Shown piece by piece: positions 3,206 through 55,762 of a stretch of 64,000 nucleotides of DNA. Source of the DNA: a virus. The notes under the pieces are model-generated. The model was not told the origin of the DNA and did not search any database. It was given only the letters and a program-made list of their open reading frames with translations. A program made the position numbers and the translations under genes. The stretch covers positions 9,671-73,670 of the IMG/VR virus record IMGVR_UViG_3300008266_009503. The stretch is one strand, 5' to 3'. Every line of letters begins with the position of its first letter. Position 1 is the stretch's first letter.

Positions 3206-4147
3206 CTATTTCTTATAATATAGTAAAATAGACCCCCAGCTCCAACCCGATCCAATAGCTGTAAACATTATTTTATCTCCCTCTACTATTTCCCTACCTT
3301 TAATAGCTTCGTCTAAAGCTATTGGTATAGAAGCACCGGCAATATTAGCGTACTTATGCATAACTGTCTTTACTCTCTCCATAGGTATTGATAGTTCCTG
3401 TGCTATTACCTTAAGGATGTTTATACTCGGCTGGTGTGGAACTAGCATTTTAATTTCATCGATACTAGTCTCTGTTTCTTTAAGTACACTCTTTAATGAT
3501 TCAGGAAGTACTTTAATAGCTTGATTCCATACTTCTTTTCCTCTCATAATAAAAGTTGATGATAACGGTAAATTAAATCCTGTCATCCCTGTACCTCTTC
3601 CATTAGCCTCTAATTTACTATACATCCATCCTTCTTCAGAAGGGCCCATAACAACAGCTCCGGCTCCGTCCCCAAAGAAGACTGCATGCTGATCTTCCCA
3701 ATTAGTTATCTTGGAATAAGCTTCTGTGCTGATTATTAATATGTTTTTATAAGTTTTACTTTCAATTAAAGAAGCTGCTAAAGTCAGAGCATATACAAAT
3801 CCTGAACATACTGCATTAATATCAAATGCTGGTATATTTTTCGATGTATTAAACTTATTATGAATAACACAAGAGGTGGGCGGCGAGATTTGTTCCGGAC
3901 TTGATGTAGCTATTATCATCATATCAATATCCTCTATGTCCATACTAGCATCCTTTAATGCATTTATTGCAGCATTATAACCTAGATTAGAAGGTAGCTC
4001 TTCTTCTACTACTCTTCTTTCTTTGATTCCCAGCTTATCGTATATCCACTCCTCGGTCGTATCTACCTTTTCTGCTACCTGTGTATTAGTAACAATCTTA
4101 GCCGGTAAATAAGAACCTACCCCTTTTAACGTAACTTTATATTTCAT
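3206..4147 (-). CDS. fabH: 3-oxoacyl-ACP synthase III
   Basis: DINAVCSGF (catalytic Cys), FGDGAGA, VPHQ, YANIAGASIP, G.GWSWG. Confidence 0.93.
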   Translation of the reverse strand: MKYKVTLKGVGSYLPAKIVTNTQVAEKVDTTEEWIYDKLGIKERRVVEEELPSNLGYNAAINALKDASMDIEDIDMMIIATSSPEQISPPTSCVIHNKFNTSKNIPAFDINAVCSGFVYALTLAASLIESKTYKNILIISTEAYSKITNWEDQHAVFFGDGAGAVVMGPSEEGWMYSKLEANGRGTGMTGFNLPLSSTFIMRGKEVWNQAIKVLPESLKSVLKETETSIDEIKMLVPHQPSINILKVIAQELSIPMERVKTVMHKYANIAGASIPIALDEAIKGREIVEGDKIMFTAIGSGWSWGSILLYYKK

Positions 4148-27856: not shown

Positions 27857-28776
27857 TACTGTCCCATTGCTTTTTTAGTGTAATAGTTTTTAGACCTTAA
27901 AGCTACCGGAATAAGTGCTTCTTTACTTGCACGTACTGGACAGATATCTAGAGACCCTCTTCGTGCATAAAGTAGCATTACGCAGCAATCCTGTACTAGA
28001 GGGTTAGACATAATCTCAGTATAGAGCTTTTCTGCACAAAACTCATGAAACTCGTTTACTTCCCGTAGGGAGATAACTAACTTCAAAAGTTCTTTTTCTT
28101 TAATTGATCCTTCTTTAGTTATAATCTGAAAATAAGCAGCTCCAGTATCTTTTTGCTTTGTATGCCTGCAGCGAGACCTAAGTATGTTAGTAAAGAAAGA
28201 GATATCTTCACTTGCTTCACCGTCTTGTGCTACAATCTCATACTTCCCTGAAGCGTTGTAGTCGCTTATTTCCATAGAAGCTAATTCTTTATCCGAAATA
28301 TAACCGTATAGATCAATAAAACCTTCTGTTGGGTTACCTTCTAGCATTTCATCGTCTCCAGAACCGAAGAAAGCGACTTCTACGGGGGCTCCAATACAGG
28401 CGCTAATATCCTTCTTTACTTGGTTTTCATAATTAGCAACAGCTTCAGGAATAGTAGCTCCCATCTTACACATGTCAAACGTATTCAAGTAGAGCTTAAA
28501 GGATTTAGACTCTACCATAAATTCAGAACTTGCAGGACATACTATTTTCAATGTACCTGCTAGAGGAAGACCATTGTTAAGCAGGAAAGTAGCTTCGTGG
28601 CAATGCCATACATCATATCCTACAAATTCATCTCCTTTAATACCCCAATCTTGACGTGCAAGAATACGCGGCATAGGATTAAGTTGTGAAGCATCAAACT
28701 GGTCTGTATAGACAGCATACGAGTTGGCCGAGCCAAGAGATTTAGCGGCGGCATCTGACATGTTATTAATTGACAT
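27856..28776 (-). CDS. queF: preQ0 reductase QueF (bimodular)
   Basis: VESKSFKLYLN motif, SRC..T.Q.D, EFHE.C.E, Y.RRG.LDI.P.R. Confidence 0.9.
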   Translation of the reverse strand: MSINNMSDAAAKSLGSANSYAVYTDQFDASQLNPMPRILARQDWGIKGDEFVGYDVWHCHEATFLLNNGLPLAGTLKIVCPASSEFMVESKSFKLYLNTFDMCKMGATIPEAVANYENQVKKDISACIGAPVEVAFFGSGDDEMLEGNPTEGFIDLYGYISDKELASMEISDYNASGKYEIVAQDGEASEDISFFTNILRSRCRHTKQKDTGAAYFQIITKEGSIKEKELLKLVISLREVNEFHEFCAEKLYTEIMSNPLVQDCCVMLLYARRGSLDICPVRASKEALIPVALRSKNYYTKKAMGQ

Positions 28777-28796
28777 AAACTTTGTTTTTTATTAAA

Positions 28797-29459
28797 TTAA
28801 GGTATTTTATTTAACTTTCCAACTTTTTTATAAGGACCTCTAGGCTTGCTAATCCGTTTTTTTCGAATTACTAACCTCATCTTTTCTTTTGTTTCTTCAG
28901 AATGGACGTATTTACCTACGTTACCTTTGTTATTGCTAGGCTTTCCTTTCTTGCTTTCAGACATCTTTTTTTTAGTTTCGTCCGAGCGTTTTTTATCCCT
29001 ATTACTCTGCTTTATTTTTTCAATCGTCTCTCTAGAATGAAATTTACCTAGCATACCTCTAGAAGGATTTTGCTTAGCTATTTCAGATCTTTTAAGCCTT
29101 GCTGCTTGAGATAGTGTTCTATCTGATTTAGAAAAAAGTTCTTTCGCTTCTTCGTATACCCTGTTACCAGCCTTACCTCTCTTCTGGTACTGGTTCCCGC
29201 TATTACACATTTTGTAAAAAGTGTAGACTGCTTTCTTATTTGTAGGGTATATTCGTGCTAGTAGCCAATGACATAAAAAATGCTCTCGAGCAGTTAACAG
29301 TACAAGGTTAGGATGCCATTTCCATTGATGGGCTTTTCCTTCTCCGCCTAAAAACTTAGGACGTATATGGTGAGCTTCGTAGTAAGACCCGTTTCCCCTA
29401 CTACGGCACTCTTTCTTAGCTTTTTCAATAATCTGATCGTAAATTTTTTGATAGTCCAT
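28797..29459 (-). CDS. HNH homing endonuclease with NUMOD3 repeats
   Basis: YEAHHIRP...GG....NLVLLTAREHFLCH.LL; HS.ET..K repeats. Confidence 0.9.
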   Translation of the reverse strand: MDYQKIYDQIIEKAKKECRSRGNGSYYEAHHIRPKFLGGEGKAHQWKWHPNLVLLTAREHFLCHWLLARIYPTNKKAVYTFYKMCNSGNQYQKRGKAGNRVYEEAKELFSKSDRTLSQAARLKRSEIAKQNPSRGMLGKFHSRETIEKIKQSNRDKKRSDETKKKMSESKKGKPSNNKGNVGKYVHSEETKEKMRLVIRKKRISKPRGPYKKVGKLNKIP

Positions 29460-29554
29460 ACAGTAAAAAATTGGCTCTTAGTCTAAGAGAGTACGGCAAT
29501 ACTCAATTAAACCTCGAGCCAAAAGTTTATAGCTGTTGCCGCAGCTTTTACTGT
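29460..29554 (-). ncRNA. Multi-stem leader RNA with kissing loops upstream of the HNH gene
   Basis: ACAGTAAAA/TTTTACTGT closing stem; AGCTG-CGGCAA-CAGCT; TTGGCTC/GAGCCAA; GAGTA-TTGCCG-TACTC; the two loops are exact complements. Confidence 0.75.
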
Positions 29555-29570
29555 AATAAATATTTAAAAG

Positions 29571-30347
29571 CTACAAATAATTTCTAAAAGTTTTTACGTT
29601 TTTAAAAATTAAATCTAACTGCTCTTCTTTTAACTCGATATCAAGATTATCAGCAAGCTTAGCTTTAGGTTTAGGAGTAGTTAACCCGTGAGGACCTAGT
29701 TCACTACCTACCCACCCGTTTACGACAGGGGAACTTGTATCTAGGGAATATATGAGGTTAGTTATATGCCTCTGATTATACTTATAGAGTATAAATTCGA
29801 CAGGGTTTTGACATCCTAGTAGGTGGAATTTAGGCATTTTACCTGAAAACTTAAACCTATTAGCATACCACCAGTTTAGAAACCTAAACCTAACTGTTAC
29901 GTAATCTGAATCAGGTACTAGATCAAAAGGTAATGCAATAATATCTACATTTTTTTGCATATACAAATCAATGCAATCAGCAATTTGATCAAAAGTCTCT
30001 CCTTGACATACGCCGATATAATTTAACTTATCAGACGCAAACTCATCGAGGTATTTTATAGCATTGCTTACGGTCTGATCATGATCGTTTACCTTATCCG
30101 GAAGTACGAGGTGAGTAGGCTTGTACGCCTCTCCTAACTCATATAACTCTTCCATTGGAATAGACTGCCCTAATTCAAAAGCAGAATTGTCTAGGATAGA
30201 ATAAGGGGCTGTTTGTAACTTCTCTTTATAAAACTCTGCATACTCCTTATCTTGATTTAGCAAATGACCTAACACGTAAGGGTAATCGCTAATTAAATCG
30301 TGGTAAGGAAATAACTGCTTTGGAATTTCGTGACTAATCTGTATCAT
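29571..30347 (-). CDS. dpdA: DpdA-like (TGT-fold) 7-deazaguanine transglycosylase, probably the DpdA3-type
   Basis: LDNSAFE, LPD, GVCQG, HLLG, SLDTSSP echo TGT-family motifs; lies between queF and queC. Confidence 0.7.
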   Translation of the reverse strand: MIQISHEIPKQLFPYHDLISDYPYVLGHLLNQDKEYAEFYKEKLQTAPYSILDNSAFELGQSIPMEELYELGEAYKPTHLVLPDKVNDHDQTVSNAIKYLDEFASDKLNYIGVCQGETFDQIADCIDLYMQKNVDIIALPFDLVPDSDYVTVRFRFLNWWYANRFKFSGKMPKFHLLGCQNPVEFILYKYNQRHITNLIYSLDTSSPVVNGWVGSELGPHGLTTPKPKAKLADNLDIELKEEQLDLIFKNVKTFRNYL

Positions 30348-30350
30348 CTT

Positions 30351-31208
30351 TTATTTATTATGTTCTGCTAATACATTTTCAACGTGTGCTCTAGCTACTT
30401 CCCAGCTAACAGGACCTCTTTCATCAGCATAATCTACAGGATCAGGACGTCCTAGTTTAATAAATGCTTCAATACGCTCTACTGATGCTGCTGATTTATA
30501 GTCGCTAAACCAGTACCCTTCTTTCGATTCATACAGAACTATGTCTCCATCTAATGTCTGAGCTTTAGGAATCCAAATAGGTTTATAGCTTGTATTGGTT
30601 CTTTTGTATACTTCATCAAAGTTAATACCAAGCTTCTCACAACACTCGAGACCGTCTTTTAAAATATCGAACTTATTAACTTCCAAATAAGGCGTGTAAT
30701 AAGAAACGCGATCAGCATGCCAGTTACCAACCCTAAAAGCGGTATCATCTGCATCACGGAATTCTTGACGGCAGTCCGGGTAGATAGCATGATCGCCTGC
30801 ATGAATACCCATAGCGATTTTAACTTCTGTTTCATTTTTAGTGGCAATTGATAAAGCTACCGCCTGAATAAGCGAGCTAAAAATTTTATTACGGTTAGGT
30901 ACTACAGTATCTTTCATATTATCCTGTTCGTAGTGTCCTTCGGGTATATCCCATCCGCCTTCTACAAGGGCTGAATTGAGTAGTTGAGTAATACCGTCAA
31001 TCTTAATTACCTGGTGTCTCACATAAGGAGTAGTACAGTCTGAATTAAGATACTCGATCAGAGATTTAGCTCTTTCAAGCTCTACTCTATGTTTTTGTCC
31101 GTAGTCAAAGCTAAGAGCTGTTACTTCATAACCGTTTGCAAGAAGGTGAAGAAGGAGAGAACTTGAGTCCATTCCACCTGACAGTGATAATACTGCTTGT
31201 TTTTTCAT
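30351..31208 (-). CDS. queC: 7-cyano-7-deazaguanine synthase
   Basis: SGGMDS, YGQKH, VPNRN, D...YPDCR. Confidence 0.93.
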   Translation of the reverse strand: MKKQAVLSLSGGMDSSSLLLHLLANGYEVTALSFDYGQKHRVELERAKSLIEYLNSDCTTPYVRHQVIKIDGITQLLNSALVEGGWDIPEGHYEQDNMKDTVVPNRNKIFSSLIQAVALSIATKNETEVKIAMGIHAGDHAIYPDCRQEFRDADDTAFRVGNWHADRVSYYTPYLEVNKFDILKDGLECCEKLGINFDEVYKRTNTSYKPIWIPKAQTLDGDIVLYESKEGYWFSDYKSAASVERIEAFIKLGRPDPVDYADERGPVSWEVARAHVENVLAEHNK

Positions 31209-37890: not shown

Positions 37891-38586
37891 CTATATGTAA
37901 CTAAAAACTTTTTTTCTTACGTAATAGCTCATATTACTCGGAGCTATGTTGAAAGTTTTTGCTGCTTCTGCTGCAGATTCATATACCTCTCCGGTAGCTA
38001 CATGCTGTACTTTTTTTCTAAGAGTACTATACTTTTCTATACGTAATTGAATTTTAGTTTTACTTCTTTTTTCATATTCCTGTTTTGTAATAAAACTAAA
38101 TTCTCCTTTTTTTAACCGGCCTGTAATAGTTCCCGGAGTTAATCCCAGTATTTTTGCAGCATGCTTTCCAGATTCAAAAACAGCCCCTGTTTCATTATGT
38201 ATAATTGCTGTTTTACGAGCTTCCCCTATTTTTGTCTTAGTTTCTTCGGAATGTTTCATACCGGTTCTAGTACTACTTATTCTTCTATTTCTTTCTAAAG
38301 AGTGTTTTACTCCTTTTCTGATTTTACTGAAATGTTCTTTCATTTCTTCTGTATGATGCCACCCTTTCAGAGTCTCTTTTTCCATTCGTAACCTTATGGC
38401 GTGACATGCAATTTCATCTCCCTGCTCTAAATGTATTTTATAGTGATCCTCTATGGTAATACATTTTAAATTTTCTAAAGAGTTATTTTTTCTGTTTCCG
38501 TCAACATGATGTATCTCGTAACTCCTACCTTGTTCGTCTACCGGGATAGGGCCGTAGTGTTTTTCCCAAAGTTTTCGATAGTTCAT
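37891..38586 (-). CDS. HNH homing endonuclease with NUMOD3/NUMOD1 domains (likely start MNYRK)
   Basis: EIHHVDGNRKNN..ENL.....EH...H; HSEET; two ETG.VFES...AA repeats. Confidence 0.88.
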   Translation of the reverse strand: MNYRKLWEKHYGPIPVDEQGRSYEIHHVDGNRKNNSLENLKCITIEDHYKIHLEQGDEIACHAIRLRMEKETLKGWHHTEEMKEHFSKIRKGVKHSLERNRRISSTRTGMKHSEETKTKIGEARKTAIIHNETGAVFESGKHAAKILGLTPGTITGRLKKGEFSFITKQEYEKRSKTKIQLRIEKYSTLRKKVQHVATGEVYESAAEAAKTFNIAPSNMSYYVRKKVFSYI

Positions 38587-38650
38587 ATTTAAATTTATAA
38601 TAAATATCAACTAATTTAAAACACTCATAACTTAATTTAACTTATTTTTA

Positions 38651-42082: not shown

Positions 42083-42502
42083 CTAAATGTTGACTATTCT
42101 GTAAATTTTTGTAGAAAGCTTCTTAAGCTCGTCTCCTTGTGATAGGAGTACAGTGTTTCTGTAGTTTTGCCATTCGACTTTAAACGTAGTATCGAGAATA
42201 CCTTCGTTTAGAGATTTAATCAACAGATTAAGACTGTTAATTGTGTATAGAGTATTAGTCTCTTTCTTTCTATGCAAGAGTATCGTGTTAGGAAGCACTC
42301 TAGCACTACTTCCTTGAAGCTCAATATTGTAAGTACATAAATATTCTTCAGAATCTTCCGATTCTAGTACAAAAATCTTACCGTACATGATAATGTACTC
42401 GGATCTAATAGTAGTCAGGATATCTTCTAGCTTATCCTTAGTAGAAAAAGTACAAAATAACTTATTTTTCAACTGATCTTGTGTTAATTCAATATATTCC
42501 AT
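42083..42502 (-). CDS. Conserved hypothetical phage protein
   Basis: LFCTF...HRKKE.NTLYTIN.LN motif. Confidence 0.7.
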   Translation of the reverse strand: MEYIELTQDQLKNKLFCTFSTKDKLEDILTTIRSEYIIMYGKIFVLESEDSEEYLCTYNIELQGSSARVLPNTILLHRKKETNTLYTINSLNLLIKSLNEGILDTTFKVEWQNYRNTVLLSQGDELKKLSTKIYRIVNI

Positions 42503-42523
42503 AATAAATAGGATTAAACCCTT

Positions 42524-55167: not shown

Positions 55168-55223
55168 AACTTTTATTTTACCTAAAAATATGTAATTTCC
55201 ACATAAATAACAACTTTTAACAT

Positions 55224-55250
55224 AAAAAAAGCCGCTTTTTAGGCGGCTTT
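55224..55250 (-). terminator. Rho-independent terminator after the tail tube gene
   Basis: AAAGCCGC-CTAAAAA-GCGGCTTT followed by a T-run on the minus strand. Confidence 0.85.
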
Positions 55251-55276: not shown

Positions 55277-55762
55277 CTAGAAGTTGAGGATACAATAATC
55301 CATTCCAATTCCAAGTTCGATTGTGATTGCATCTTGGTTAGACCAATCATAAGAACCGAAGTTTGCGGTCTTAACGAAAGCTCCTTTGATAATCCACTCA
55401 CTCACCACATCGCCTACTGGACCTAAAATAGAAAGGTTAAGGTCTTTCTTGTAGAAATCAGAATAACCATCACGGCCAGTTACAGATTCATGTGATAAAC
55501 GAATCCACTCCATACAGGCTTGTTGACCAGAAGGAGAAATTGGATTGTAGAGGTTAAGAGTCATATCTTGCCACTCAGCCTTACCTTTAATCTTACGGTA
55601 CACGTTGATATGATCAAGCTTCACTTCGTTCAAATTAATGTTTGGTGCTGTAGCACTCTTAATCATGAAGGAAGGAATACCATCTACATACATGATAAAG
55701 CGATTTTGAACTGTTGGTTCAAACGCTGTAAACATTATCTCATTAGGATCGAGCACCGGCAT
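55277..55762 (-). CDS. Tail tube protein (gp19-like)
   Basis: FEP...NRF, KG.AEW, W....E..TG..GY..YKKD; follows the sheath gene. Confidence 0.88.
   Translation of the reverse strand: MPVLDPNEIMFTAFEPTVQNRFIMYVDGIPSFMIKSATAPNINLNEVKLDHINVYRKIKGKAEWQDMTLNLYNPISPSGQQACMEWIRLSHESVTGRDGYSDFYKKDLNLSILGPVGDVVSEWIIKGAFVKTANFGSYDWSNQDAITIELGIGMDYCILNF

Follow-up and report, generated by a model that had tools for sequence, protein, structure and literature searches.

Why does the gene for a small homing endonuclease in an uncultured phage begin directly behind an RNA element with two mutually complementary hairpin loops? The element lies in a window of 64,000 nucleotides, the whole stretch of DNA analyzed here, which was taken from a 73.7-kb IMG/VR virus record (IMGVR_UViG_3300008266_009503; estimated completeness, 45%). 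A preliminary description, made from the letters alone, had proposed a closing stem reaching to the ATG, an inner stem, two hairpins, and a TATTTAT motif just upstream. All of these elements are present on the minus strand (Table 1). Based on their conservation in nine further copies, we conclude that the leader is a real structured RNA family without an Rfam entry, and we propose that it most likely controls the timing of nuclease production.

The nuclease cassette and its leader family

All genes around the leader are carried by the minus strand. Homologues of the 220-residue HNH protein are annotated homing endonucleases in many phages, and the neighboring queC, queF, and PurN-like formyltransferase genes place the cassette within a 7-deazaguanine DNA-modification cluster. 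The phage belongs to a lineage of uncultured Flavobacterium-type myoviruses. Among cultured phages, the 160-kb myovirus Flavobacterium phage vB_FspM_immuto is the nearest by tail sheath (52% identity), and neither the locus nor the leader has a DNA match among cultured phage genomes.

Table 1. Features of the nuclease cassette and related positions in the window
Feature	Position	Strand	Description
Mobile cassette	28777-29576	-	5' linker (new stop for upstream gene), box, leader, HNH gene, 20-nt 3' spacer
HNH-NUMOD3 homing endonuclease gene	28797-29459	-	220 aa; NUMOD3 E 6e-9
Intergenic stretch	29460-29570	-	111 nt, 5' of the HNH gene
DpdA-like gene	29571-30347	-	258 aa; upstream; without Pfam match
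TATTTAT box	29556-29562	-	Identical in 10/10 leaders
Helix P0		-	RNAalifold prediction: on read-through RNA, UUAU of the box may pair with AUG
P1, 5' strand	29546-29554	-	ACAGUAAAA; partner, 29460-29468
P1, 3' strand	29460-29468	-	UUUUACUGU; abuts ATG (29457-29459)
P2 hairpin	29532-29545	-	GCUG(CGGCAA)CAGC; loop L2, 29536-29541
Joiner J2/3	29523-29531	-	A/U-rich; unpaired in consensus fold
Long arm P3/P3a/P3b	29471-29522	-	~21 layers, two 2x2 internal loops, tip loop L3
Arm base	29516-29522 with 29471-29477	-	UUGGCUC with GAGCCAA
Arm tip	29489-29504	-	GAGUA(UUGCCG)UACUC
Loop L3	29494-29499	-	UUGCCG; kissing partner of L2 (29536-29541)
U6 tract	29465-29470	-	Immediately 3' of the arm; terminator-like or unpaired ribosome landing site
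Second HNH gene	37891-38586	-	TATTTAT 13 nt before ATG (38586-38606)

Comparison with relatives identifies the cassette as an insertion. Among 38 IMG/VR homologues of the 258-aa upstream gene (72 to 87% amino acid identity), 37 have no gene between this DpdA-like gene and queF, the two either overlapping or separated by only a few bases. The only insert at the same site, in contig L117, comprises a homologous leader (76% nucleotide identity to that of the window) and an HNH gene (46% amino acid identity). The insert starts directly after the ...TAT of the upstream gene and supplies a new stop, with TATTTAT following 12 to 14 nt on. In a lake metagenome run (X4), a contig joining position 28777 to 29590 represents a cassette-free allele and other contigs bear the cassette, indicating that it is polymorphic in that lake sample. 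Metagenome DNA contigs contained no loop variants at the window locus, only this cassette-free joint. L117 (1253-2262, plus strand) and L115 have another insertion, of ~1 kb, between queC and the DpdA-like gene; that of L117 carries a gene for a 313-aa GIY-YIG/HTH (SegE-like) protein, the start of which is enclosed by a perfect 17-bp hairpin whose 5' strand contains TATTTAT.

Searches of IMG/VR and JGI/TARA metagenome contigs, using DNA patterns in which the loops were left free, recovered eight further distinct copies from uncultured phage and metagenome contigs, in addition to that of L117. The resulting ten sequences (window, L117, L128, L129, L131, L133, L136, L138, L140, and L141) are 29 to 34% G+C outside the loop pairs and score 111 to 143 bits with a covariance model. 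The model finds one true copy in the genome of the window, two in the L128/L131 contig, and one in the L129 contig; the single match in the window bears out the earlier statement that the second HNH gene has no such leader. Further exact-pattern matches (L120-L126, L130, L132, L137, and L150-L159) were chance hits, excluded by the covariance model or by inspection. No leader was found at 79 loci encoding HNH homologues (28 to 51% identity), and the central-arm pattern had no match in GTDB genome contigs. The preliminary description had suggested a comparison with Rfam, and the leader matches no family there, with pRNA, c4, riboswitches, ribozymes, and group I introns among those covered: Rfam 15 gave no match with E <0.99 in positions 28500 to 30500 (searched to E 10) and no gathering-score match for the leaders of L133, L136, L138, and L141. 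ARAGORN detected no tRNA or tmRNA in the leader.

In all ten copies a nuclease ORF directly follows the leader, and its type varies: HNH-NUMOD3 in the window, L117, L131, L136, L140, and L141; a different HNH type in L129; and GIY-YIG in L128, L133, and L138. At one insertion site, behind the same AAA_18-like kinase gene, near-identical leaders precede a GIY-YIG gene (L128:2181-2873, minus strand) and an HNH gene (L140:1-502, minus strand). The HNH proteins of L136:5903-6481 and L141:2908-3693 share their first ~39 residues exactly and differ beyond that point, so that the genes are mosaic. The leader is therefore a 5' module that remains the same as one enzyme gene replaces another, and we conclude from the sequence comparisons that it is a portable, probably cis-acting part of a mobile nuclease cassette.

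A three-way junction with a covarying loop-loop helix

The leader RNA, of ~95 to 100 nt, is a three-way junction formed by a closing stem (P1), a short hairpin (P2), and a long arm. A 119-nt stretch folds at -38.5 kcal/mol, compared with -22.2 ± 3.3 kcal/mol for 200 shuffled sequences (z = -4.9). RNAalifold, applied to the ten homologues, independently recovers the nested fold and adds the pairing of AUG with the UUAU of the box. The minimum-free-energy structure of the window sequence taken singly swaps part of P1 and P2 for a 5' hairpin specific to the window, which we rejected because it is not kept in homologues. On the model-based alignment, 99.7% of 310 pair cells (31 pairs) are standard pairs, versus 29 to 46% in slid controls. 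G.U pairs occur at at least five positions in the sense orientation only, indicating that the structure is that of an RNA transcribed in the direction of the nuclease gene.

The individual helices differ in how they vary. P1 (8 pairs; 98.8% of cells paired) has one variable pair, C-G in the window versus U-A, with U.G and C.A intermediates. P1 and P0 are otherwise mostly invariant, and the 5' strand may be kept as a promoter or initiation sequence, so that covariation support for P1 rests on this one pair. The four pairs of P2 are formed in every sequence, with G-C/G.U and U-A/U.G variation. At the base of the arm, GGCUC/GAGCC is invariant across the ten copies; the stem at its tip covaries (A-U/G-C in a 5:5 ratio; A-U/G.U/G-C), and arm length is conserved across three sequence subtypes. 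The placement of the element is equally constant. P1 starts 1 to 2 nt 3' of the box in the ten leaders (1 nt in the window), and the AUG overlaps P1 or lies no more than 2 nt from its end in all ten, despite the unrelated ORFs.

The two 6-nt loops of the window, L2 and L3, are exact reverse complements, as had been claimed. Across the family, the loop-loop helix retains 6 of 6 pairs in 10 of 10 sequences (100% paired), and compensatory double changes are seen at four of the six pairs, with no one-sided changes. We found four codes: T1, CGGCAA/UUGCCG, in five copies including the window; T2, CUGCAA/UUGCAG, in L131; T3, CUGGCA/UGCCAG, in L129, L133, and L138; and T4, CCCUCA/UGAGGG, in L141. All follow the pattern C-NNNN-A / U-NNNN-G, with 3 to 4 G-C among the 6 pairs. 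Covariation between the loops of homologous leaders had been put forward as a check on the pairing, and it is decisively borne out by all four codes, none of which is broken. One other potential partner of L2, a UGCCG word within the ORF, was dismissed, since it is not kept in the other copies.

Judged by this covariation, the loop-loop pairing is under selection. The codes are reassorted relative to the three arm subtypes and to the nuclease types, and they change quickly: between L136 and L141, 8 of 8 loop-core bases differ, compared with 5 of 99 bases elsewhere (Fisher 4e-9), and between L136 and L131 the figures are 2 of 8 and 2 of 99. The only genome with two copies, represented by the L128/L131 contig, bears two different codes. 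Such rapid, concerted change is unlike the behavior of a passive structural brace, and the turnover of the loop cores points to selection on the specificity of RNA-RNA pairing.

Proposed start codon control and its alternatives

The TATTTAT motif is distributed like a promoter element. The window contains 26 copies on the sense strand and 10 on the other, and 16 of the 26 fall in the intergenic 8.7% of the window (p 2.5e-11), mostly 13 to 37 nt before an ATG, including those of the tail sheath gene and its structural neighbors. In the immuto phage (L160; NC_055915.1, 144026-152149), TATTTAT(A/T)A occurs 22 to 30 nt before the tail sheath, tail tube, baseplate hub, and tape-measure genes. Based on these positions, TATTTAT(A/T)A is probably a late promoter element of this phage lineage. 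The short leaders contain no Shine-Dalgarno sequence, consistent with a Bacteroidota host. Two further copies of the box have unusual surroundings. One (42502-42510, minus strand) ends 1 nt before the ATG of ORF 42083-42502, the start of which is either misassigned or that of a leaderless mRNA. The other directly follows a terminator, AGCCGCC..GGCGGCU plus U7 (55209-55250, minus strand), between a 161-aa ORF (55277-55762; tail-tube-like by position) and the next gene.

Nuclease genes that lack the leader combine the box with simpler structures. Upstream of the second HNH gene, the box region forms a small hairpin with the start, and predicted AUG accessibility is 0.29 on read-through RNA versus 0.93 on RNA with its own start. 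In this gene and two others (window 38586, L117:1321, and L128:5357), a simple hairpin covers the start, with the box in its 5' strand and AUG or GGAG in its 3' strand, as published for T-even phages (PMC2988022), providing a precedent for the design within these phages.

For the leader itself, we lean toward a switch in which the nuclease would be off on read-through transcripts and on when transcribed from its own promoter, the kissing-loop core serving to fix the leader fold. On read-through transcripts from the DpdA-like gene, the box and the next 8 to 9 nt (P0 and the 5' strand of P1) would be available to pair with the AUG and the 8 to 9 nt before it, burying the start and leaving the nuclease silent. 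The host group apparently does not use Shine-Dalgarno sequences, and structure at the start should thus be decisive. Transcripts from the late-type box of the cassette would lack the 5' strand of P1 and would be translatable. The preliminary description had likewise proposed that a start just after TATTTAT deletes this strand; the promoter-like placement of the box in both the window and immuto fits that proposal, and the start itself we infer. Between the P1 strands, P2 and the ~21-layer arm, with their loops paired, would most likely hold the leader in the fold that the switch needs.

Predicted accessibilities agree in direction with such a switch. In the window, the unpaired probability near the AUG is predicted to be 0.26 on read-through RNA and 0.66 if the RNA starts 7 nt after the box. 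Across the family, the corresponding ranges are 0.14 to 0.52 and 0.33 to 0.59, a modest gain, with no change in 2 of 10 copies (L117 and L138). Many ordinary late genes of the phage have the same contrast between read-through and own-start RNA, so occlusion alone leaves the extra 80-nt core unexplained. This core must add something beyond simple occlusion, and fast-changing loop cores are not expected if it is purely a structural brace.

What the core adds might be termination. It is possible, although we give it a clearly lower probability than the switch, that TATTTAT drives an ~85- to 90-nt RNA consisting of P2 and the arm and ending at the U6 tract. Production of the nuclease would then require read-through of the terminator, and the short RNAs or nascent leaders would interact through their loops; the outcome would be copy-specific negative feedback with the loop code as its specificity, as for the P4 CI or P1/P7 c4 RNAs. 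No other hairpin-plus-U-tract in the window is as strong as the arm plus U6 (-23.4 kcal/mol), which has the form of an intrinsic terminator or attenuator, a stable hairpin directly followed by a U-tract; a simple terminator scan omits it, as its loop and stem rules exclude interrupted arms. A hairpin followed by at least five U residues is kept in 10 of 10 copies, the order of promoter, structured RNA, and U-tract is that of a small-RNA gene or attenuator, and the conventional terminator with U7 and TATTTAT at 55229/55209 shows that such signals exist in this phage. Loop cores that are hypervariable but always complementary (L136 versus L141, above), and that differ between the two copies of one genome, are also in line with specificity of this kind. 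However, the downstream queF has no box of its own and overlaps the upstream gene in relatives, and an efficient terminator would starve it. The conserved, tight abutment of P1 and the AUG would be unnecessary for a stand-alone small RNA, and pairing with the A-run of P1 accounts for part of the U-richness after the arm. If the arm and U6 do terminate transcription, they would also be predicted to stop own-promoter transcripts before the ORF.

The loops might instead join separate molecules. Covariation alone does not distinguish loop pairing in cis from pairing in trans and is compatible with either. For the window subtype, rough helix-length arithmetic suggests that a kiss in cis requires a sharp fold-back of the near-continuous arm: the ~21 layers of the arm are conserved and P2 has only 4 to 5 bp, so that in a straight-arm model, itself a rough estimate, L3 lies far from L2 and the kiss may be intermolecular. 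L2 of one leader would then pair with L3 of another in head-to-tail dimers or multimers, as in the phi29 pRNA; loop-loop contacts in the pRNA family join separate identical molecules (PMC4201828). Silencing or decay at high mRNA concentration might follow. The internal loops of the arm might nevertheless permit the fold-back, and an arrangement of this kind has no known benefit; we consider it improbable.

We assign a similarly small chance to a passive role, in which the core of P2, arm, and kiss protects the 5' end of the mRNA against decay, or keeps the start from misfolding with the phage sequence around each new insertion site, with no switch. P2 would be at the extreme 5' end of own-promoter transcripts, and a self-contained fold would be useful to a cassette that inserts in many contexts; in the window, the start-proximal strand can indeed mispair with the 3' strand of P2 and with J2/3 when P2 is open. 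Neither the complementarity between the pre-AUG and promoter-proximal strands nor the hypervariable loop codes would be explained by such a role. Finally, the earlier suggestion that the leader is an autoregulatory binding site for, or an RNA partner of, its nuclease is very improbable, since one leader serves three unrelated nuclease types, the near-identical leaders of L128 and L140 precede different enzymes at one site, copies encoding proteins with the same N terminus have different loops, although these are the part of the leader that is most exposed, and the available precedent, I-TevI, represses its own promoter via an operator on DNA, not RNA (PMC2988022).

Relation to known RNAs

The switch that we favor has its closest parallel in T-even phages, where the homing endonuclease genes I-TevI, I-TevII, I-TevIII, segB, and Aeh1 mobE have control hairpins with an embedded late or middle promoter (PMC2988022). 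In both cases the element is part of the mobile gene, a nuclease-specific promoter (here predicted) lies in or next to the 5' strand of a start-burying structure, and read-through transcripts are silent and own-promoter transcripts open, again by prediction here. Unlike the simple T-even hairpins, the leader forms a three-way junction of ~95 nt, has a loop-loop helix of 6 bp that covaries, and is common to different nuclease families. It is also without a Shine-Dalgarno sequence, such that the AUG and its upstream flank are predicted to be buried, and its promoter box is TATTTAT rather than the T-even TATAAATA. A promoter embedded in an inhibitory structure is thus already known. What is new here is the three-way junction, a loop pair that both covaries and is hypervariable, and the use of one leader by several nuclease families.

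Other RNAs share parts of the architecture. Like the leader, the phi29 pRNA (~120 nt) is a phage RNA with a three-way junction and two loops that remain complementary among relatives despite sequence change, and its loop contacts were first drawn as an internal pseudoknot. It differs in being a stand-alone, portal-binding RNA with intermolecular loops, whereas the leader is part of an mRNA, has no packaging context, and matches no Rfam family. Purine riboswitches likewise have a P1 that closes a junction, the two arms of which touch by their loops, and the expression platform is controlled by whether P1 forms; here the arms are very unequal (4 to 5 bp versus ~21 layers), a conserved ligand-pocket junction is lacking, and Rfam gives no match.

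The loop codes themselves resemble RNAs that act by pairing specificity. The P4 CI and P1/P7 c4 RNAs are processed from a leader and pair with single-stranded targets, resulting in a translation block or termination. In those systems, short complementary leader segments with compensating changes define the specificity of RNA-RNA control over downstream expression, but here both partners are hairpin loops within one ~95-nt element, which has no Rfam c4 match. Fully paired 6- to 7-nt kissing complexes are formed by HIV TAR-TAR*, ColE1 RNA I/RNA II, and R1 CopA/CopT, and in the plasmid kissing RNAs loop sequence sets specificity and diversifies. The leader shares with these complexes the pairing of every loop base and a GC-rich core. 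Their partners are antisense pairs that come from opposite strands or separate molecules, unlike the two loops of the leader, which are on one sense transcript.

A further idea, which we regard as doubtful, is that the loops are more than a brace and form an address code by which leaders, or short RNAs terminated at the arm and U6, recognize each other in trans through L2 and L3. If so, contact could take the form of head-to-tail dimers or of RNA immunity like that of P4 and c4, and each nuclease cassette would sense and limit its own dosage. Orthogonal codes would keep cassettes that share a genome, or that meet when phages co-infect, from interfering with each other, and selection for new ones would drive the rapid, concerted turnover of the loops.

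In the full-text literature, we found no paper linking a kissing-loop leader to homing endonucleases; the motif may be an unnamed entry in a catalogue, from 2023, of candidate structured RNAs of viruses (PMC10690425). Homing endonucleases serve as models of selfish genes, and what has been published on how they are regulated is based on the simple T-even hairpins. Here a whole RNA module of box, putative switch helix, and kissing core travels with nucleases of unrelated families. It is a well-supported new structured RNA family and a candidate for Rfam, and it offers a natural set of orthogonal 6-bp kissing pairs. Other known examples of selection on RNA-RNA specificity come mainly from the copy control of plasmids and the immunity RNAs of phages. 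The leader also represents a predicted case of structure-based translation control in phages whose leaders are without Shine-Dalgarno sequences, and the promoter-like box and the cultured relative immuto give experimental access to it. A second structured RNA occurs on one of the family's contigs: L136, which is phage-like, carries at 3398-3790 (plus strand) an Rfam tmRNA match (68.6 bits, E 4e-25), a phage-borne tmRNA gene.
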